DNA of 10,424 nucleotides, from positions 1 to 10,424 of the IMG/VR virus record IMGVR_UViG_2778261161_000006. The stretch is one strand, 5' to 3'. The notes beneath the pieces are model-generated. The model saw only the letters and a program-made list of their open reading frames with translations. It ran no database searches and had not been told where the DNA came from. This DNA is from a virus (lineage: Duplodnaviria > Heunggongvirae > Uroviricota > Caudoviricetes). This document shows, in pieces, positions 1 through 10,424 of the stretch; within the stretch, counting starts at the first letter, position 1, and every line of letters begins with the position of its first letter. Position numbers and translations under genes: made by a program.

Positions 1-165
1 ATCTCTGTTGCCGGGATGCCTTCCAGTACAGGCCAGAAAGAGCCATCATCAAGCCCGAGATCGCGGCGTTCGGTTACCGTGGCATTTGAAGAGAAGTATG
101 GCTCCCAGCTGGAGCTGATATTTCGTTTTATCGATCGCGCACTGGCGATTGGTGTGCTGGCCTGA
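1..165 (+). CDS. 3' end of an unidentified ORF upstream of Q (partial; start lies outside the window)
   Basis: Frame 1 is open from position 1 to a TGA at 163-165, ending 17 nt before the Q start. The translation (…[30 protein letters not shown]) matches nothing I recognise. Supported only by the open frame and position. Confidence 0.25.
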
Positions 166-182
166 TTTTGTGGAGAAAGTTA

Positions 183-566
183 ATGCGTGATATTCAGATG
201 GTTCTTGAACGTTGGGGAGCGTGGGCGGCTAATAATCATGAAGATGTGACCTGGTCGTCCATTGCCGCCGGTTTTAAGGGATTAATTCCTTCAAAAGTAA
301 AATCTCGCCCGCAATGTTGTGACGATGACGCGATGATTATTTGCGGGTGCATGGCCCGTCTGAAAAAGAACAACAGCGATTTGCACGATTTATTAGTAGA
401 TTATTATGTAGTCGGTATGACATTCATGTCACTGGCAGGTAAGCATTGCTGCTCTGATGGTTATATCGGGAAAAGGTTACAGAAGGCTGAGGGCATAATT
501 GAAGGGATGTTAATGGCATTAGATATCCGGTTAGAGATGGATATCGTTGTTAATAACTCTAATTAA
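183..566 (+). CDS. quuD: Late-gene antitermination protein Q (127 aa)
   Basis: ATG at 183 preceded by GGAG at 171-174. Cys-rich putative zinc-binding region (…[18 protein letters not shown]…GKHCCSDGY…). Sits immediately upstream of hairpin terminators and the lysis cassette. Matches my recollection of the DLP12 Q-like protein. Confidence 0.8.
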
Positions 567-599
567 TATGCCAATTGTTTACTGAAAGTTATTAAAAAT

Positions 600-618
600 G
601 GGGCGTTGCAACGCCCCC
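600..618 (-). terminator. GC-rich perfect palindrome GGGGCGTTGCAACGCCCC; candidate intrinsic terminator for the antisense porin transcript (possibly bidirectional)
   Basis: 18-nt perfect palindrome at 600-617. On the minus strand it is followed by ATTTTTAATAAC (complement of 585-599). It lies about 140 nt downstream of the nmpC stop on the minus strand. Confidence 0.4.
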
Positions 619-683
619 AAAAATAAAGGGTAATATATAACAGAAGGTTTATATAGTTAGAAGCAAGGTTGTGCTCCTAAAGG

Positions 684-747
684 AAGTGGCTTGAGGGAGC
701 CACTTATATGTTGGGGAGGCAACGCCTCCCGCAACATATCTTTTTCG
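684..747 (+). terminator. Tandem hairpins downstream of Q; the second is a strong intrinsic terminator (candidate tR' of the Q-controlled late transcript)
   Basis: Hairpin 1: AAGTGGCT (684-691) / AGCCACTT (698-705), loop TGAGGG. Hairpin 2: ATATGTTGGGGAGGC (706-720) / GCCTCCCGCAACATAT (724-739), about 15 bp with a one-nt bulge, followed by C and TTTTT (741-745). The position is analogous to lambda pR'-tR'. Confidence 0.5.
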
Positions 748-755
748 TAATCAGA

Positions 756-1853
756 TTAGAACTGGTAAACCAGACCTACAGCAACGATGTCATCAGTGCT
801 TACACCGAGTGCTTTAGTGAAGTCATTTTTGTCAAGCAGGTTGATTTTGTAATCAACGAAAGTAGACATATTTTTGTTGAAGTAATAGGTTGCACCTACA
901 TCAACATATTTGACTAAGTCCTGATCGCCCCATACTCCAAGATCCTTACCTTTAGATTGCAGGTAAGCAACGGACGGACGCAGACCGAAATCGAACTGAT
1001 ATTGTGCAACAGCTTCGAAGTTTTGAGCTTTATTAGCAACGAAGTGATCAGCAAATACAGTCATATTCTGGGTTTCAGAATAGGTAGTGGCCAGGTAAAT
1101 GTTGTTAGCGTCATATTTCAGACCTGCGGCCCAAACTTCTGCATTTTTACCGGAAGCAAATACTTCAGGAAGAACTTTCCCTGCATTAACTTGAGTGTCG
1201 GTACGATCAGATTTCGCATAAGTTGCACCGATACCGAATCCTTCGTATTCATAGGTAGCAGAGAAACCGAAGCCATCACCGTTACCTTCGGTGTAGTTAT
1301 CGAAATCGCTACGATCGTTTTTGCCTTGGTACTGAGCAGCAAAGTTCAGACCATCAACCAGACCAAAGAAGTCGTTGTTACGATAGGTTGCAACACCAGT
1401 GGTGCGACCAGTCATGAACACATCTGTTTGGGTCCAGGTATCGCCACCGAATTCTGGCAGAACGTCAGTCCACGCACCGATGTCGTATGCTACACCGTAG
1501 TTACGGCCGTAATCGATTGAGCCGTAGTCACCGAATTTCAGGCCTGCAAATGCAAGACGGGTTTTGTCTTTGGAGGAACCTTGAGATTCAGCGCGGTTGC
1601 CTTTGAATTCATATTCCCACTGACCGAAACCAGTCAGCTGATCGTTGATTTGGGTTTCGCCTTTGAAGCCCAGACGAACATAAGTAGTATCACCATCATC
1701 TGCATCGTTAGAGGAAAAGTAGTGCTTGGCATTAACTTTCCCGTACAGATCCAGCTTGTTACTGTCTTTATTATAAATTTCAGCTGCCTGAGCAGACATC
1801 GCCATCAGTACTGATGCAGCTACAGCAGAAATTGCCACTGTTAATTTTTTCAT
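756..1853 (-). CDS. nmpC: Outer-membrane general porin, OmpC/OmpF family (NmpC / phage Lc-type), intact 365 aa
   Basis: N-terminal signal peptide [23 protein letters not shown]|AEIYNKD. Porin-like Gly/Tyr/Asp-rich beta-strand pattern and C-terminal YQF with terminal Phe, typical of outer-membrane beta-barrels. Uninterrupted ORF; no IS sequence inside. Confidence 0.92.
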
Positions 1854-2441
1854 CGTGAGCCCTTTTTTTTGAACTATTATTAAAAAATGATGTCACTGCG
1901 CGATAAATATTCATCTAATCAATGTGATTATTTCAAGATGTAAGTTTTAGTTTCTCATTTAATTTGTGAAGTAGATCTCTATTTTTATCTGAACTTTTTC
2001 TATCGAAACCTATTTATGGCTCTTATTTGAACAAAAATAAATCTATTAGCTAATTTATATTAATGGCTGTTATTTATGGTGGTTCTATAATTCGTCTGTT
2101 TAATTTAAACCGGCTAAAAATAACACTGGAAATTATTTATTGGTTATTTGTTGAGGTTTTCTTATGTATTTGTGGTGATGTTTTGAACACTCGGTAGCAT
2201 TCTCATAAATATCATTCAGTGGTTTACGTACGTAAAAAATTGGTTATGCTGTTAAGAGTGGTTACTTCGTCACACAGCTTAAACCCGCCGTCGAGCTGGT
2301 TTTTCCATTTTTTGAGTCTCGATATTAGCTGATAACTCAATACCTGAGTTATTCACTGACTCGGAGTCAGTTACGTTTCTGCTTTTTTGCGATACGTTGT
2401 ATTCCCTCAATTTACACCCGCTTTGTCTGCGAGGTGGGGTT
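1854..2441. promoter_or_regulatory. AT-rich intergenic region of about 590 bp holding the divergent nmpC promoter/leader and the lysis-cassette upstream region; contains repeated TATTTATGG-type motifs and a 14-bp palindrome
   Basis: Visibly AT-rich. Direct repeats ATGGCTCTTATTT (2016-2028) and ATGGCTGTTATTT (2063-2075). TATTTATGG at 2011 and 2071, and TATTTATTGG near 2134. Perfect palindrome TTTACGTACGTAAA at 2223-2236. Confidence 0.4.
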
Positions 2442-2657
2442 ATGAAATTCATGGATAAGTTAACAACTGGAGTCGCCTATGGCACCTCAGCAGGTAGTGC
2501 CGGTTACTGGTTTTTACAGCTGCTCGATAAAGTCACTCCCTCACAGTGGGCAGCAATAGGTGTGCTGGGTAGCCTGGTATTTGGCCTGCTGACGTACCTG
2601 ACAAACCTTTATTTCAAGATTAAAGAAGATAAGCGCAAGGCTGCGAGAGGTGAATAA
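2442..2657 (+). CDS. essD: Class II holin / pinholin with dual-start motif (phage 21 S-like), 71 aa
   Basis: RBS GAGGTGGGG upstream of ATG 2442. N-terminus MKFMDK has two in-frame Met codons (holin/antiholin dual start). Two hydrophobic segments and a charged C-terminus ([13 protein letters not shown]). Stop overlaps the endolysin start (TAATG). Closely resembles phage 21 S as I recall it. Confidence 0.9.
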
Positions 2658-3154
2658 TGCCTCCATCATTACGAAAAGCCGTTGCTGCTGCTATTGGTGG
2701 CGGAGCAATTGCTATAGCATCAGTGTTAATCACTGGCCCAAGTGGTAACGATGGTCTGGAAGGTGTCAGCTACATACCATACAAAGATATTGTTGGTGTA
2801 TGGACTGTATGTCACGGACACACCGGAAAAGACATCATGCTCGGTAAAACGTATACCAAAGCAGAATGCAAAGCACTCTTGAATAAAGACCTTGCCACTG
2901 TCGCCAGACAAATTAACCCGTATATCAAAGTCGATATACCGGAAACAACGCGCGGCGCTCTTTACTCATTCGTTTACAATGTGGGTGCTGGCAATTTTAG
3001 AACATCGACGCTTCTTCGCAAAATAAACCAGGGCGATATCAAAGGCGCATGTGATCAGCTGCGTCGCTGGACATACGCTGGCGGTAAGCAATGGAAAGGC
3101 CTGATGACTCGTCGTGAGATTGAGCGTGAAGTCTGTTTGTGGGGGCAACAGTGA
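2657..3154 (+). CDS. rrrD: SAR (signal-anchor-release) endolysin, T4-lysozyme-like muramidase, 165 aa
   Basis: N-terminal Gly/Ala-rich hydrophobic segment [20 protein letters not shown] (SAR domain). Catalytic E35, D44, T50 in [16 protein letters not shown]. Start overlaps the holin stop. Typical phage 21 R-type. Confidence 0.92.
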
Positions 3155-3612
3155 GCAGAGTAACCGCGATTATATCCGCTCTGATTATCTGCATCATCGT
3201 CAGCCTGTCATGGGCGGTCAATCATTACCGTGATAACGCAATCGCCTACAAAGCCCAGCGCGACAAAAATGCCAGAGAACTGAAGCTAGCGAACGCGGCA
3301 ATTACTGACATGCAGATGCGTCAGCGTGATGTTGCTGCGCTCGATGCAAAATACACGAAGGAGTTAGCTGATGCGAAAGCTGAAAATGATGCTCTGCGTG
3401 ATGATGTTGCCGCTGGTCGTCGTCGGTTGCACATCAAAGCAGTCTGTCAGTCAGTGCGTGAAGCCACCACGGCCTCCGGCGTGGATAATGCAGCCTCCCC
3501 CCGACTGGCAGACACCGCTGAACGGGATTATTTCACCCTCAGAGAGAGGCTGATCACTATGCAAAAACAACTGGAAGGAACCCAGAAGTATATTAATGAG
3601 CAGTGCAGATAG
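3151..3612 (+). CDS. rzpD: Inner-membrane spanin Rz (i-spanin), lambda-type
   Basis: Protein from [13 protein letters not shown]… is near-identical to lambda Rz as I recall it (N-terminal TMD, coiled-coil periplasmic domain). Likely GTG start at 3151 overlapping the endolysin stop (GTGA), preceded by GGGGG; an alternative GTG at 3139 is possible. Confidence 0.85.
3371..3553 (+). CDS. rzoD: Outer-membrane lipoprotein spanin Rz1 (o-spanin), embedded in the +1 frame of Rz, 60 aa
   Basis: [20 protein letters not shown]… has lipobox LVVVGC and a proline-rich mature region ([16 protein letters not shown]). Fully nested within Rz. Near-identical to lambda Rz1 as recalled. Confidence 0.85.
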
Positions 3613-3643
3613 AGCTGACCATATCGATGGGCAACTCATGCAA

Positions 3644-3937
3644 TTATTTTGAGCAATACACACGCGCTTCCAGCGGAGTATAAATGCCTAAAGTAATAAA
3701 ACCGAGCAATCCATTTACGAATGTTTGCTGGGTTTCTGTTTTAACAACATTTTCTGCGCCGCCACAAATTTTGGCTGCATCGACAGTTTTCTTCTGCCCA
3801 ATTCCAGAAACGAAGAAATGATGGGTGATGGTTTCCTTTGGTGCTACTGCTGTCTGTTTGTTTTGAACAGTAAACGTCTGTTGAGCACATCCTGTAATAA
3901 GCAGGGCCAGCGCAGTAGCGAGTAGCATTTTTTTCAT
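3644..3937 (-). CDS. borD: Bor outer-membrane lipoprotein (serum-resistance, Iss family), 97 aa
   Basis: MKKMLLATALALLITGC… has lipobox LITGC. Same length and near-identical sequence to lambda Bor as recalled. Antisense to the lysis genes, as in lambda. Confidence 0.92.
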   Translation of the reverse strand: MKKMLLATALALLITGCAQQTFTVQNKQTAVAPKETITHHFFVSGIGQKKTVDAAKICGGAENVVKTETQQTFVNGLLGFITLGIYTPLEARVYCSK

Positions 3938-4227
3938 GGTGTTATTCCCGATGCTTTTTGAAGTTCGCAGAATCGTATGTGTAGAAAATTAAACAAACCC
4001 TAAACAATGAGTTGAAATTTCATATTGTTAATATTTATTAATGTATGTCAGGTGCGATGAATCGTCATTGTATTCCCGGATTAACTATGTCCACAGCCCT
4101 GACGGGGAACTTCTCTGCGGGAGTGTCCGGGAATAATTAAAAACGATGCACACAGGGTTTAGCGCGTACACGTATTGCATTATGCCAACGCCCCGGTGCT
4201 GACACGGAAGAAACCGGACGTTATGAT

Positions 4228-4638
4228 TTAGCGTGGAAAGATTTGTGTAGTGTTCTGAATGCTCTCAGTAAATAGTAATGAATTATCAAAGGTATAGTAA
4301 TATCTTTTATGTTCGTGGATATTTGTAACCCATCGGAAAACTCCTGCTTTAGCAAGATTTTCCCTGTATTGCTGAAATGTGATTTCTCTTGATTTCAACC
4401 TATCAAAGGACGTTTCTATAAGATGCGTATTTCTTGAGAATTTAACATTTACAACCTTTTTAAGTCCTTTTATTAACACAGTGTTATCGTTTTCTAACAC
4501 AATGTGAATATTATCTGTGGCTAGATAGTAAATATAATGTGAGACATTGTGACGTTTTAGTTCAGAATAAAACAATTCACAGTTTAAATCTTTTCGCACT
4601 TGATCGAATATTTCTTTAAAAATGGCAACCTGAGCCAT
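4228..4638 (-). CDS. ybcV: Hypothetical protein YbcV (DUF1398-type), 136 aa; AT-rich cargo gene
   Basis: ORF open to 4761 (177 aa), but the internal ATG at 4638 is preceded by GGAAGG about 9 nt upstream and gives the 136-aa form I recall for K-12 YbcV. Strongly AT-rich compared with the flanking lambda-like DNA. Confidence 0.7.
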
Positions 4639-4923
4639 TGGTAAAACCTTCCATGTGATACGAGGGCGCGTAGTTTGCATTATCGTTTTTATCGTTTCAA
4701 TCTGGTCTGACCTCTTTGTGTTTTGTTGATGATTTATGTCAAATATTAGGAATGTTTTCAATTAATAGTATTGGTTGTGTAACAAAGTGCGGTCCTGCTG
4801 GCATTCTGGAGGGAAATACAACCGACAGATGTATGTAAGGCCAACGTGCTCAAATCTTCATACAGAAAGATTTGAAGTAATATTTTAACCGCTAGATGAA
4901 GAGCAAGCGCATGGAGCGACAAA

Positions 4924-5130
4924 ATGAATAAAGAACAATCTGCTGATGATCCCTCCGTGGATCTGATTCGTGTAAAAAATATGCTTAATAGCACCATTTC
5001 TATGAGTTACCCTGATGTTGTAATTGCATGTATAGAACATAAGGTGTCTCTGGAAGCATTCAGGGCAATTGAGGCAGCGTTGGTGAAGCACGATAATAAT
5101 ATGAAGGATTATTCCCTGGTGGTTGACTGA
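4924..5130 (+). CDS. ybcW: Small hypothetical protein YbcW, 68 aa
   Basis: ATG at 4924 preceded by GGAG (4911-4914). 68-aa ORF in the position and of the length I recall for DLP12 ybcW. Divergent from ybcV. No recognisable domain. Confidence 0.6.
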
Positions 5131-5294
5131 TCACCATAACTGCTAATCATTCAAACTACTTAACCTGTGACAGAGCCAACACGCAGTCTGTCACTGTCAG
5201 GAAAGTGGTAAAACTGCAACTCAATTACTGCAATGCCCTCGTAATTAAGTGAATTTACAATATCGTCCTGTTCGGAGGGAAGAACGCGGGATGT

Positions 5295-5489
5295 TCATTC
5301 TTCATCACTTTTAATTGATGTATATGCTCTCTTTTCTGACGTTAGCCTCCGACGGCAGGCTTCAATGACCCAGGCTGAGAAATTCCCGGACCCTTTTTGA
5401 TCAAGAGCGATGTTAATTTGTTCAATCATTTGGTTAGGAAAGCGGATGTTGCGGGTTGTTGTTCTGCGGGTTCTGTTCTTCGTTGACAT
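5295..5489 (-). CDS. ylcI: Small basic protein with predicted ribbon-helix-helix fold (YlcI-like), 64 aa
   Basis: Basic N-terminal tail (KNRTRRTTTR) followed by a beta-strand/helix/helix pattern NIRFPNQMIEQINIALDQKGSGNFSAWVIEACRRRL, typical of Arc/MetJ/CopG regulators. Lies in DNA that matches the lambda right end as I recall it. Confidence 0.55.
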   Translation of the reverse strand: MSTKNRTRRTTTRNIRFPNQMIEQINIALDQKGSGNFSAWVIEACRRRLTSEKRAYTSIKSDEE

Positions 5490-5688
5490 GAGGTTGCCCC
5501 GTATTCAGTGTCGCTGATTTGTATTGTCTGAAGTTGTTTTTACGTTAAGTTGATGCGGATCAATTAATACGATACCTGCGTCATAATTGATTATTTGACG
5601 TGGTTTGATGGCGTAGATGCACGTTGTGACATGTAGATGATAATTATTATCATTTTGCGGGTCCTTTCCGGCGATCCGACAGGTTACG

Positions 5689-5700
5689 GGGCGGCGACCT
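5689..5700 (+). other. cosN: lambda cohesive-end sequence GGGCGGCGACCT (terminase nicking site)
   Basis: Exact 12-nt lambda cohesive-end sequence, flanked on both sides by sequence matching the lambda genome termini as I recall them (…CCGACAGGTTACG | GGGCGGCGACCTCGCGGGTTTTCGCTATTTATGAAAATTTTCCGG…). Confidence 0.9.
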
Positions 5701-5739
5701 CGCGGGTTTTCGCTATTTATGAAAATTTTCCGGTTTAAG

Positions 5740-5856
5740 GCATTTCCGTTCTTCTTCGTCGTAACTTAATGTTTTTATTTAAAATACCCCCTGAAAAGAA
5801 AGGAAACGACAGGTGCTGAAAACGAGCTTTTGGGCCTCTGTCGTTTCCTTTCTCTG
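5740..5856 (+). promoter_or_regulatory. cosB: terminase small-subunit binding region (R3, IHF site I1, R2, R1)
   Basis: R3-like CATTTCCGTTCTTCTTCG (5741-5758). AT-rich I1-like stretch (about 5768-5786). R2 GAAAGGAAACGACAGG (5798-5813) and R1 CTGTCGTTTCCTTTC (5838-5852) form a 15-nt inverted repeat. Positioned between cosN and the Nu1 start, as in lambda. Confidence 0.75.
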
Positions 5857-5877
5857 TTTTTGGCCGTGGAATGAACA

Positions 5878-6423
5878 ATGGAAGTCAACAAAAAGCAGCT
5901 GGCTGACATTTTCGGTGCGAGTATCCGTACCATTCAGAACTGGCAGGAACAGGGAATGCCCGTTCTGCGAGGCGGTGGCAAGGGTAATGAGGTGCTTTAT
6001 GACTCTGCCGCCGTTATAAGATGGTATGCCGAAAGGGATGCTGAAATTGAGAACGAAAAGCTGCGCCGGGAAGTTGAAGAACTGCGGCAGGCCAGCGAGA
6101 CAGATCTCCAGCCAGGGACTATTGAGTACGAACGCCATCGACTTACGCGTGCGCAGGCCGACGCACAGGAGTTGAAAAATGCCAGAGACTCCGCTGAAGT
6201 GGTGGAAACCGCATTCTGTACTTTCGTGCTGTCGCGGATCGCAGGTGAAATTGCCAGTATTCTCGACGGGATCCCCCTGTCGGTGCAGCGGCGTTTTCCG
6301 GAACTGGAAAACCGACATGTTGATTTCCTGAAACGGGATATCATCAAAGCCATGAACAAAGCAGCCGCGCTGGATGAACTGATACCGGGGTTGCTGAGTG
6401 AATATATCGAACAGTCAGGTTAA
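5878..6423 (+). CDS. nohD: Terminase small subunit Nu1, 181 aa
   Basis: MEVNKKQLADIFGASIRTIQNWQEQGMPVLRGGGKGNEV… (winged helix-turn-helix N-terminus) is near-identical to lambda Nu1 as recalled. 3' end overlaps the A start, as in lambda. Confidence 0.93.
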   Translation: MEVNKKQLADIFGASIRTIQNWQEQGMPVLRGGGKGNEVLYDSAAVIRWYAERDAEIENEKLRREVEELRQASETDLQPGTIEYERHRLTRAQADAQELKNARDSAEVVETAFCTFVLSRIAGEIASILDGIPLSVQRRFPELENRHVDFLKRDIIKAMNKAAALDELIPGLLSEYIEQSG

Positions 6424-7501
6424 CAGGCTGCGGCATTTTGTCCGCGCCGGGCTTCGCTCACTGTTCAGGCCGGAGCCACAGACCGCCGTTGAATGGGCGG
6501 ATGCTAATTACTATCTCCCGAAAGAATCCGCATACCAGGAAGGGCGCTGGGAAACACTGCCCTTTCAGCGGGCCATCATGAATGCGATGGGCAGCGACTA
6601 CATCCGTGAGGTGAATGTGGTGAAGTCTGCCCGTGTCGGTTATTCCAAAATGCTGCTGGGTGTTTATGCCTACTTTATAGAGCATAAGCAGCGCAACACA
6701 CTTATCTGGTTGCCGACGGATGGTGATGCCGAGAACTTTATGAAAACCCACGTTGAGCCGACCATCCGCGATATTCCGTCGCTGCTGGCGCTGGCTCCGT
6801 GGTATGGCAAAAAGCACCGGGATAACACGCTCACTATGAAGCGTTTTTCCAATGGTCGTGGCTTCTGGTGCCTGGGCGGTAAAGCGGCAAAAAACTACCG
6901 TGAAAAGTCGGTGGATGTGGCGGGTTATGATGAACTTGCTGCCTTTGATGAGGATATTGAACAGGAAGGCTCTCCGACGTTCCTTGGCGACAAACGTATT
7001 GAAGGCTCGGTCTGGCCAAAGTCCATCCGTGGCTCCACGCCCAAAGTGAGAGGCACCTGCCAGATTGAGCGTGCAGCCAGTGAATCCCCGCATTTTATGC
7101 GTTTTCATGTTGCCTGCCCGCACTGCGGGGAGGAGCAGTATCTTAAATTTGGCGACAAAGAGACGCCGTTTGGCCTCAAATGGACGCCGGATGACCCCTC
7201 CAGCGTGTTTTATCTCTGCGAGCATAATGCCTGCGTCATCCGCCAGCAGGAGCTGGACTTTACTGATGCCCGTTATATCTGCGAAAAGACCGGGATCTGG
7301 ACCCGTGATGGCATTCTCTGGTTTTCGTCATCCGGTGTGACCGTGGAAACGGCCCGCCGCATTCTGGCAGCTGCACCACAGAGTGCACAGGCGCGCAGTG
7401 ACACTGCGCTGGATCGTCTGATGCAGGGGGCACCGGCACCGCTGGCTGCAGGTAACCCGGCATCTGATGCCGTTAACGATTTGCTGAACACACCAGTGTA
7501 A
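6398..7501 (+). pseudogene. A: Truncated terminase large subunit A (N-terminal ~313 aa) fused to ~54 codons from the 3' end of the gene preceding D (C/Nu3 region); deletion remnant
   Basis: MNISNSQVNRLRHFVRAGLRSLF… through …GILWFSSSG matches lambda gpA N-terminal half as recalled. Lambda A is about 641 aa, whereas this ORF is 367 aa. After the junction near 7336 the sequence (VTVETARRILAAAPQ…NDLLNTPV) is not gpA and runs straight into the D RBS. Confidence 0.85.
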
Positions 7502-7510
7502 GGGATGTTT

Positions 7511-7843
7511 ATGACGAGCAAAGAAACCTTTACCCATTACCAGCCGCTGGGCAACAGTGACCCGGCACATACGGCAACCGCGCCCGGCGGATTGAGTGCG
7601 AAAGCGCCTACAATGACCCCGCTGATGCTGGACACCTCCACCCGTAAGCTGGTTGTGTGGGATGGCACCACCGACGGTGCTGCCGTTGGCATTCTGGCGG
7701 TTGCTGCTGACCAGACCAGCACCACGCTGACGTTCTACAAGTCCGGCACGTTCCGTTATGAGGATGTGCTCTGGCCGGAGGCTGCCAGCGACGAGACGAA
7801 AAAGCGGACCGCGTTTGCCGGAACGGCAATCAGCATCGTTTAA
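7511..7843 (+). CDS. D: Head decoration protein D, intact, 110 aa
   Basis: [27 protein letters not shown]…TAISIV is near-identical to lambda gpD as recalled. RBS AAGGGA 5 nt upstream of ATG 7511. Confidence 0.92.
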
Positions 7844-7860
7844 CCTTACCCTTCATCACT

Positions 7861-7887
7861 AAAGGCCGCCTGTGCGGCTTTTTTTAC
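7861..7887 (+). terminator. Hairpin plus T-tract in the D-E intergenic region (intrinsic terminator/attenuator-like)
   Basis: AAAGGCCGCCTGTGCGGCTTTTTTT: GCCGC/GCGGC stem with flanking A/T pairing, followed by 7 T. Confidence 0.5.
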
Positions 7888-7898
7888 GGGATTTTTTT

Positions 7899-8405
7899 AT
7901 GTCGATGTACACAACCGCCCAGCTGCTGGCGGCAAATGAGAAGAAATTTAAGTTTGATCCGCTGTTTCTGCGTCTCTTTTTCCGTGAGAGCTATCCCTTC
8001 ACCACGGAGAAAGTCTATCTCTCACAAATTCCGGGACTGGTAAACATGGCGCTGTACGTTTCGCCGATTGTTTCCGGTGAGGTTATCCGCTCCCGTGGCG
8101 GCTCCACCTCTGAATTTACACCGGGATATGTCAAGCCGAAGCATGAGGTGAATCCGCAGATGACCCTGCGTCGCCTGCCGGATGAAGATCCACAGAATCT
8201 GGCGGACCCGGCTTACCGCCGCCGTCGCATCATCCTGCAGAACATGCGAGACGAAGAGCTGGCCATTGCTCAGGTCGAAGAGATGCAGGCCGTTTCTGCC
8301 GTGCTTAAGGGCAAATATACCATGACCGGTGAAGCCTTCGATCCGGTTGAAGTGGATAGAGGTCTTTTTAGAAGAAGGTCTCTCCGTTACTGCACCTGCT
8401 TCTGA
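7899..8405 (+). pseudogene. E: Truncated major capsid protein E (first ~153 codons of 341) followed by 15 out-of-context codons and a stop; deletion remnant
   Basis: MSMYTTAQLLAANEKKFKFDPLFLRLFFRESYPFTTEKVYLSQIPGLVNMALYV…EAFDPVEVD matches the lambda gpE N-terminus as recalled, then diverges at 8358 ([15 protein letters not shown]). Confidence 0.88.
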
Positions 8406-9840
8406 TTATATTGTTGCTGAAACGACTTATAAATTTGGCGCAACTGATCCTTATTCTGAATCAGTTGCGGTAAATTTAATTTTAGATTTTAAACAAGGTA
8501 ATGGATTTTATAGTTCGTATCCTGTTTTGAGTAAGTCAGACATTAGCGGGAATAAGATTTACGCTAATGATGAAGTTATTGTCCGTAGTCAGAACGCGTT
8601 AAGGATGATTGCAGGTGATTACGGTGTCATATGGCGAAATGATGGAGCAAATACTTACTTGCTCATGACTGATAAAGGCGACCAGTACGGTGGCTGGAAC
8701 GGTCTTCGACCATTTGCAGTAAATAACGCAACAGGTGAAGTGACGATCAATACATCACTTAATTCTCCTAAGGGGATTAAGGGAAATTCTGATACAGCTA
8801 CGAAACTTCAGACAGCAATAAAAATATCTGGTGTTTCGTTTGATGGTTCTACTGATATCACTTTAACCGCTGCGCATGTTGCTGCTTTTGCCAGAAGAGC
8901 AACGGATACGTATGCCGATGCGGATGGGGGCGTTCCCTGGAATGCCGAATCAGGCGCTTACAATGTCACTCGCTCTGGCGACAGCTATATTCTGGTTAAC
9001 TTCTATACCGGAGTCGGAAGTTGCCGGACCTTGCAGATGAAGGCGCATTACAGAAATGGTGGTCTGTTCTACCGTTCTTCAAGAGACGGTTATGGTTTTG
9101 AGGATGACTGGGCAGAAGTTTATACCTCGAAAAATCTTCCACCAGAAAGCTACCCAGTCGGCGCACCAATCCCGTGGCCATCAGATACCGTTCCGTCTGG
9201 TTATGCCCTGATGCAGGGGCAGACTTTTGACAAATCTGCCTACCCGAAACTTGCAGTCGCTTATCCGTCAGGCGTGATCCCTGATATGCGTGGCTGGACG
9301 ATTAAGGGCAAGCCCGCCAGTGGTCGTGCCGTATTGTCTCAGGAACAGGACGGCATTAAATCGCACACTCACAGCGCCAGCGCATCCAGTACGGATTTGG
9401 GTACGAAAACCACATCGTCGTTTGATTACGGCACTAAATCCACGAATAACACCGGGGCGCATACGCACAGTCTGAGCGGCTCTACAAGCTCGGCCGGAGC
9501 ACACTCGCACGTTGATGGTCGCAGGTTTAATACAAGCACTTTTAAAGACACCTATCAGTATGGTTCTACAGCTGTCGGAAGTAACTCATACCAGGTACAA
9601 GGGGCGGTTGGTCTGGGCATTGGCACGATGGCGAATACGAACTCTGCTGGCGCGCATACCCACTCACTGTCCGGCACTGCTGCAAGCGCAGGTGCACACG
9701 CACATACTGTCGGTATTGGTGCTCATACGCACTCCGTTGCGATTGGCTCACATGGACACACCATCACCGTTAACGCTGCTGGTAACGCGGAAAACACCGT
9801 CAAAAACATCGCATTTAACTATATTGTGAGGCTTGCATAA
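8359..9840 (+). pseudogene. stf: 5'-truncated side tail fibre gene (stf-like): non-lambda AT-rich central domain plus lambda Stf / T4 gp37-like C-terminal His-box domain
   Basis: Continuous frame from the junction to the stop, with no credible start of its own (the GTG at 8329 lies inside the E remnant in another frame). C-terminal ~230 aa ([71 protein letters not shown]…[11 protein letters not shown]) match lambda Stf as recalled. Confidence 0.8.
9361..9770 (+). repeat. Internal repeated His-box (HxH) motifs of the tail-fibre distal domain
   Basis: Repeated GAHTHSLSG(S/T)…AGAH(S/A)[18 protein letters not shown] and [11 protein letters not shown] segments within the stf-like ORF. Confidence 0.6.
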
Positions 9841-10424
9841 TGGCATTCAGAATGAGTGAACAAGCACGGACCATAAAAATTTATAATCTGCTGGCCGGAA
9901 CTAATGAATTTATTGGTGAAGGTGATGCATATATTCCGCCTCATACAGGTCTGCCAGCAAACAGTACCGATATTGCACCACCAGATATTCCTGCTGGCTT
10001 TGTGGCTGTTTTCAACAGTGATGAGGCATCGTGGCATCTCGTTGAAGACCATCGGGGTAAAACGGTTTATGACGTAGCGTCAGGGGACGCGTTATTTATT
10101 TCTGAACTCGGTCCGTTACCGGAAAATGTTACCTGGTTATCGCCGGAAGGGGAGTTTCAGAAGTGGAACGGCACAGCCTGGGTGAAAGATGCAGAAGCAG
10201 AAAAACTGTTCCGGATCCGGGAGGCGGAAGAAACAAAAAACAGCCTGATGCAGGTAGCCAGTGAGCATATTGCGCCACTTCAGGATGCTGTAGATCTGGA
10301 AATCGCAACGGAGGAAGAAACCTCATTGCTGGAAGCCTGGAAAAAGTATCGGGTGTTGCTGAACCGTGTTGATACATCAACTGCACCTGATATTGAGTGG
10401 CCTACGAACCCTGTCAGGGAGTAA
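9840..10424 (+). CDS. tfa: Tail fibre assembly protein Tfa, intact, 194 aa
   Basis: [54 protein letters not shown]… is near-identical to lambda Tfa as recalled. Start overlaps the stf stop (TAATG). Stop at 10422-10424. Confidence 0.9.

Follow-up and report, generated by a model that had tools for sequence, protein, structure and literature searches.

An internal 3,923-bp deletion as the very probable origin of a terminase::C/Nu3 fusion reading frame in a DLP12-type Escherichia coli prophage

Introduction

In a 10,424-nt stretch of prophage DNA (hereafter "the window", i.e., the whole stretch that was analysed), an open reading frame begins as lambda gene A, encoding the large terminase subunit gpA (TerL), and ends as something else, with its stop codon lying just short of the head decoration gene D. 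How was this frame put together, is the junction within it real, and would its product be anything other than a relic? The original prediction had invoked a deletion of several kilobases, by which the 5' half of A became fused to the 3' end of the gene preceding D. Our analysis indicates that, in all probability, the fusion marks the site at which a single internal deletion of 3,923 bp took place in a lambdoid cryptic prophage of the DLP12 type, carried by a rare E. coli lineage, and belongs to a non-functional remnant undergoing ordinary decay.

Results

Late gene organization and chromosomal locus

Over its 10.4 kb, the window covers the late region of a prophage resembling lambda; from left to right, it contains the 3' end of quuD (the antiterminator Q gene), an OmpC-type porin gene (−), holin, lysozyme, and Rz/Rz1 genes, bor, ybcV, ybcW, ylcI, cos, a Nu1-type small terminase gene, the fusion ORF (6398–7501), D, a truncated E, the 3' part of stf, and tfa. 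This corresponds to the DLP12-type late gene order quuD-nmpC-essD-rrrD-rzpD-borD-ybcV-ybcW-ylcI-nohD-A', and positions 148–6705 are approximately 98% identical in DNA sequence to DLP12 of E. coli K-12, the IS5 of the latter excepted. Upstream of Nu1 the cos region is intact; the cosN cohesive-end sequence GGGCGGCGACCT at 5689–5700 (+) equals lambda nt 1–12, with window position 5689 aligning to lambda nt 1. The Nu1-type gene nohD (5878–6423, +) is likewise intact, encoding a 181-aa PF07471 protein with three substitutions relative to lambda Nu1, as is D (7511–7843, +), which encodes a 110-aa protein with four substitutions relative to lambda gpD. Both cosN and nohD have thus stayed intact, at approximately 98% identity to lambda, even though the element cannot make heads or tails.

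As the window covers the prophage interior only, its locus was assigned via carrier contigs, the chromosomal setting being read from the longer contigs of sister assemblies; in the NCBI assembly GCA_002463805.1, one contig is 100% identical to the window. Carrier contigs L003–L007 display a fimbrial gene, a GerE-type response regulator gene (in the fimZ position), and an integrase gene on one flank, with omptin, AraC-family, DUF4434, and NfrA genes on the other. Judged by this gene content together with the K-12 map, the integration site is of the DLP12 type (tRNA-Arg argU with intD, between fimZ and ompT/envY/ybcH/nfrA), and the carrier locus is argU-intD…ompT-envY-ybcH-nfrA, the site of DLP12 in E. 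coli K-12.

Several further features of the window deserve description. The nmpC-type porin gene (756–1853, −) is intact and encodes 365 aa; in K-12 the gene carries an IS5B insertion, and the alignment to K-12 is broken within it at window positions ~814–822. The ybcV-ybcW-ylcI module (3995–5657, between bor and cos) is also found in K-12 and in strain JNEC-KY175, whereas the prophage at this locus in PapM-36-2 has a shorter, unrelated segment instead; this difference is an instance of mosaic module exchange among lambdoid prophages. An Rfam scan of the window yielded a single match, to IS009, which lies inside the tfa coding region (10183–10381, +; 229.5 bits, full length), with none at the fusion ORF. 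A 121-nt tfa stretch (10259–10379) is repeated at 89% identity at L005 11310–11430, i.e., ~1 kb downstream of the window, in a tfaX-like fragment beyond a methyltransferase gene.

Anatomy of the fusion reading frame

The fusion ORF (6398–7501, +) comprises 367 codons, which specify gpA residues 1–313, a hybrid codon for Val314, and residues 387–439 of gpC/Nu3. As originally proposed, the frame is open and keeps its Nu1-overlapping start: it begins at gene A's own GTG inside the 3' end of Nu1, with the same 26-nt overlap with nohD as in lambda. Comparison of both DNA and protein with intact relatives delimits the A-derived part to 6398–7337 (+). An intact prophage of E. coli JNEC-KY175 encodes a 641-aa large terminase subunit whose first 313 residues are the same as those specified here; relative to lambda gpA, this part has two substitutions (99.4% identity). 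The remainder (7338–7501, +) is the 3' end of C/Nu3, equal to lambda 5574–5737 and read in the native C/Nu3 frame. In the last 54 residues of the product, 52 match the gpC/Nu3 C-terminus, one of the two mismatches being the hybrid junction codon. The prediction of 54 further codons in the same frame, ending just before D, was accurate, with a TAA stop at 7499–7501 and the D start at 7511, such that the native spacing from the C stop is preserved.

For comparison at the DNA level, we used four intact or near-intact relatives, namely phage PhiR34_1, the JNEC-KY175 prophage, phage lambda, and the PapM-36-2 prophage. All four are collinear with the window through gene A up to nt 7337, and again from nt 7332 onward in the 3' end of C/Nu3, with exactly 3,923 bp missing between these flanks relative to each of them (lambda nt 1651–5573). 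Lambda coordinates 1–1650 and 5568–6594 are present in the window. Against the JNEC-KY175 prophage, window positions 71–7337 align at 99.945% identity, and positions 7332–8358 align at 98.9% identity, 3,923 bp further along. Lost to the deletion are A codons 314–641, the whole of W and B, and C codons 1–385 or so, which bears out the expectation of a several-kilobase loss of W, B, and most of C/Nu3.

Alignment to lambda A and C/Nu3, the check that had been suggested for defining the breakpoint and any microhomology, places the former exactly at 7337/7338 and reveals the sequence CCGGT (7332–7336, +), which each intact reference has at the two deletion endpoints and of which the window retains one copy. 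The end of gpA identity, predicted at about nt 7336, was hence correct to within 1 nt. In the intact references, the A-side endpoint reads CCGGTGAAG and the C-side endpoint CCGGTATGA; all five of five carry CCGGT at both endpoints, in the contexts …TCATCCGGTGAAGAG… in A and …CCCCCGGTATGACCG… in C, with the window and all seven carrier loci reading …TCATCCGGTGTGACCG… at the junction. Following CCGGT, the G at 7337 derives from the A side and TGACC onward from the C side; the match at the endpoints is thus 5 nt rather than 6, as the base after the repeat is A-derived. Codon 314 is consequently a hybrid GTG (Val), the equivalent residue being Glu in A and Met in C, and the junction peptide of the predicted product reads …DGILWFSSSGVTVETAR. 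Every base at the junction is attributable to A or C, with no foreign base, insertion-sequence (IS) remnant, inverted repeat, or longer homology detected there. The junction therefore displays the hallmarks of a microhomology deletion, i.e., a repeat at both endpoints, a single retained copy, and no foreign DNA.

As 3,923 equals 3 × 1,307 + 2, the missing length is not a multiple of three, and A and C/Nu3 occupy different frames; the join restores the C/Nu3 frame and so leaves the 367-codon ORF open, an outcome with an a priori chance of one in three. A consensus scan of positions 5500–8500 for promoters and terminators gave counts not above those in shuffled sequence, with none at the junction.

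Two findings could have undone the deletion reading, namely a 7337–7501 segment of non-C/Nu3 origin or a terminase that is naturally about 367 aa long in this phage family. Instead, positions 7338–7501 are 98–99% identical in DNA to the intact relatives and to lambda 5574–5737, in the C/Nu3 frame, and the large terminase subunit measures 641 aa in lambda as well as in PhiR34_1, JNEC-KY175, PapM-36-2, and DSM 103246, these last four being intact or near-intact lambdoid relatives. No observation contradicts the deletion itself.

Recurrence of the junction

The identical 367-aa product and junction were recovered from at least seven independent E. coli assemblies (NCBI and Logan), each time at the argU-intD…ompT locus. 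By exact-sequence look-up, the product is present on contigs of five different NCBI assemblies and of several Logan assemblies derived from different SRA runs. Carrier contigs extend up to 72 kb, with the same exact protein also encoded on a contig of 324,605 bp; the NCBI protein record is entitled [quoted passage not shown]. The carriers are near-identical, with 0–2 differences across the up-to-10.4 kb that each has in common with the window (99.96–100%), so that purifying selection on the fusion ORF cannot be judged either way for want of variation.

Elsewhere the junction is scarce. Across 5,426 complete E. coli genomes, a 601-nt spanning query was never covered, its two halves always lying either ~3.9 kb apart or in different places, and the exact 30-nt junction sequence matched neither GTDB species representatives nor JGI metagenome contigs. 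No mention of this A'::C' junction was found in the literature that was searched. The junction is real and the allele is rare: the match to A and C/Nu3 is no chance resemblance, the same junction in at least seven independent assemblies is not an assembly artefact, and certain carriers differ in structure elsewhere, indicating that they represent independent data sets.

Additional deletions and defectiveness of the element

Using the PapM-36-2 prophage as a reference, three junctions could be mapped in the window (all +). At J0 (71–76, ~75/76), just upstream of quuD, 8,861 bp of early region are missing at a short and imperfect microhomology (CGG.T). J1, the fusion junction described above (7337/7338), lacks the 3,923 bp spanning the rest of A, W, B, and most of C, with a 5-nt overlap (CCGGT). 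J2 (8357/8358) has a 2-nt overlap and lacks 14,971 bp, the stretch from E codon 154 into the middle of stf. By this map the whole early/replication region is missing at J0; window positions 1–75 match a segment in the left, intD-proximal part of the PapM-36-2 prophage that lies 8,861 bp further from quuD there than it does in the window.

Downstream of D, the truncated major capsid gene E' (7899–8405, +) consists of E codons 1–153, ending at 8357, followed by 15 codons of stf-derived sequence in a non-native stf frame and then a stop. The stf 3' remnant (8357–9840, +) would encode the C-terminal ~494 aa of the side tail fibre, with tfa starting from 9840. In complete genomes, the top-ranked matches to this region begin only at window position 8357, and none among the matches listed spans J2. 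Since the portal, protease, and tail genes as well as a complete capsid gene are all absent, the element is defective.

Two sister assemblies bearing the A'::C' junction also carry a satellite of ~10.7 kb within the E' remnant, right after window position 8143 (L004 11747–21104; L008; L014 20149–30867); in the window itself this insertion site is unoccupied. The satellite encodes an integrase, AlpA, an Icd-like protein, a D5-type primase, SSB, its own gpE-like and gpD-like proteins, and TIR or Nu1-like cargo. Its E 5' fragment/integrase junction was found in 174 of the 5,426 complete E. coli genomes, in one case splitting E of an otherwise complete prophage. Helper-embedded PICIs of the 11capE type target the lambdoid capsid gene (PMC10111431); the satellite at 8143 matches this published type and is thus already known.

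Predicted capabilities of the fusion product

The original prediction that the nuclease/ATPase half of A had been removed calls for one correction. The GpA_nuclease domain (PF20454), at residues 322–600 in an intact relative, is absent from the fusion, whereas the core GpA_ATPase domain (PF05876) is retained whole at residues 47–285 (profile positions 3–237 of 247, E = 3e-51). Present within the latter are Walker A (KSARVGYS, at 76), Walker B with E179 (VAGYDE, at 174), and GST (at 212), as assigned in gpA (PMC6379665). The break hence falls between two Pfam domains, outside the core ATPase fold. In lambda gpA the lid subdomain of the ATPase occupies residues 327–364 (PMC6379665), and in TerL proteins the N-terminal helix binds TerS while the C-terminus binds the portal (PMC10810279); with gpA sequence stopping at residue 313, both the lid and the portal-binding C-terminus are missing from the fusion. 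A search of PDB sequences with full-length gpA returned no solved relative detectable by sequence, and the domain limits given here were therefore taken from Pfam and the literature.

A truncated terminase N-domain could still be made, the ORF being open from its native GTG in Nu1, and the predicted product would keep the Nu1-binding N-terminus and the core ASCE ATPase domain. Set against the 641-aa lambda gpA, it has the same GTG start inside nu1 and the same Walker A, Walker B, E179, and GST motifs, with 54 unrelated gpC/Nu3 residues in place of residues 314–641. With the lid, nuclease domain, and portal-docking end gone, such a product should be unable to cleave cos or dock on a prohead, and so would not constitute a terminase; this absence of cos cleavage and packaging activity is inferred from domain content.

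Relatives of the prophage and of the truncated gene

The PapM-36-2 prophage (NZ_CP050646.1) is an almost complete lambdoid element of the DLP12 family at argU, with an integration site and flanks orthologous to those of the window prophage. The two have late genes that are 98–99.7% identical, the same stf/tfa allele (99.7%), and the same right-hand flank of methyltransferase gene, tfa fragment, α/β hydrolase gene, and ompT. PapM-36-2 lacks the ybcV-ybcW-ylcI module of the window; conversely, it has an 8.9-kb early region, A-W-B-C, and E through stf, all three of which are deleted in the window.

In K-12, the DLP12 pseudogene aaaD (b4634) lies at the same argU-intD…ompT-envY-ybcH-nfrA locus, in a prophage sharing with the window the quuD-porin-essD-rrrD-rzpD-bor-ybcV-ybcW-ylcI-nohD order at approximately 98% DNA identity. 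There too, an intact Nu1 homologue is followed by a lambda-type A 5' fragment cut by an internal deletion, albeit at other positions: ~103 A codons (to window position 6705) are joined in K-12 to tfaD (window position 9986), whereas in the window A continues to codon 313 and is fused in frame to C/Nu3. The aaaD::tfaD deletion corresponds to window positions 6706–9985 (L010 17662/17660), thereby engulfing J1 and J2, and K-12 DLP12 consequently has none of the C' tail, D, E', and stf' that the window retains. The region is thus dispensable in other lineages, the K-12 DLP12 deletion spanning it. The K-12 deletion was either independent of that in the window or later, with descent from a window-type intermediate being possible. 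Within this prophage family, the window represents an earlier degree of decay than K-12 DLP12 in that less of it has been lost.

Truncated gpA proteins also occur more widely, and the idea that they mark a truncation hot spot was considered and set aside. Among the 15 members listed (of 767) in the 90% cluster, 12 of the 14 others end inside gpA, most being labelled partial (contig ends). One such protein, with gpA residues 1–292 followed by six others, is found on 29 contigs, including one of 4.6 Mb, is not labelled partial, and looks like a genuine separate truncated allele; another (gpA 1–350 plus three residues) is known from one Logan contig of 1.1 kb. In E. coli, alleles with a truncated gpA are common. 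The closest described counterpart of the fusion is K-12 aaaD, the same kind of object with other breakpoints, and the fusion is an instance of a well-known process.

Discussion

A single deletion joined A after codon 313 to C/Nu3 codon 386/387 at the 5-nt direct repeat CCGGT. The probable route is illegitimate recombination without RecA, by slippage during replication or by microhomology-mediated end joining; that neither RecA nor a site-specific recombinase took part is suggested by the junction, where longer homology and remnants of mobile elements are both missing. With the base after CCGGT coming from the A side, the microhomology is imperfect at the crossover, and the exact mechanism is not fixed. 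Two further deletions of the same kind removed the early region and the segment from E codon 154 to mid-stf.

Other origins for the junction are far less credible. An assembly or chimeric-read artefact might be suspected given that the junction is so far known from draft/short-read assemblies only, with neither the complete E. coli genomes, most of which are long-read, nor the GTDB representatives containing it; against this, five separate NCBI assemblies and several Logan assemblies from different SRA runs share it exactly, a 5-nt repeat cannot collapse an assembly, and the carriers differ structurally elsewhere (the PICI at window position 8143), which argues that they are not copies of one data set. 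Such an artefact is already effectively refuted, and its probability is vanishingly small. A deletion driven by a mobile element or site-specific recombinase, whether IS-mediated adjacent deletion or integrase action on pseudo-att sites, might be considered because mobile elements are active in this neighbourhood, the K-12 region containing IS5 (porin gene) and IS3 (renD), and a PICI integrating 800 bp downstream in sister strains. Against this, J1 bears no IS remnant, inverted repeat, or foreign base, with J0 and J2 being equally clean (overlaps of 2–5 nt), rendering this origin extremely improbable.

A separate matter is whether the fusion, whatever its origin, has since been put to use. We favour a passive remnant over a selected gene, even though certain observations sit awkwardly with this reading: the fusion leaves an open, in-frame ORF, its native start, the upstream Nu1, and cos are intact, and the break falls between Pfam domains. 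These same features, along with a complete ATPase domain according to Pfam, would suit an exapted dominant-negative protein which, together with NohD (Nu1), might interfere with packaging in superinfecting lambda-like phages by titrating or poisoning their terminase; it would be a decoy TerL piece that still binds Nu1-type small subunits while being unable to cut or to dock to the portal. In support of such a scheme, TerL contacts TerS through its N-terminal helix and the motor fails once one subunit is defective (PMC10810279), nu1 of K-12 DLP12 works in lambda (PMC3945230), and a preprint reports that a defence encoded by a prophage is directed against the terminase complex (10.1101/2025.02.27.640495). 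If true, the remnant would represent a domesticated anti-packaging defence instead of junk. The distribution of the allele speaks otherwise, however, as it is rare, nearly clonal, and absent from the 5,426 complete genomes and the metagenome scan, with K-12 and other lineages deleting the region outright. Moreover, an in-frame join is expected by chance in one case out of three, the missing lid subdomain makes folding and stability doubtful, and there is no evidence of late transcription reaching the ORF in an element devoid of its early region. We thus consider an interfering role very unlikely, and retain the passive remnant as our reading of the fusion.

Beyond annotation, the fusion itself is of little importance: the public label "phage terminase large subunit family protein" should be amended to flag a deletion-derived fusion or pseudogene. 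The window as a whole offers a clean and datable case of stepwise prophage decay, with three clean junctions overlapping by 2–5 nt. Being less eroded than DLP12 of K-12, and with a full-length relative at the same locus, it is useful for reconstructing how DLP12 decayed. The cos/nu1 region of K-12 DLP12 recombines with infecting lambda at high frequency, its nu1 being functional in lambda (PMC3945230). With cos and Nu1 intact at approximately 98% identity to lambda, the remnant described here can likewise still exchange DNA with infecting lambdoid phages.
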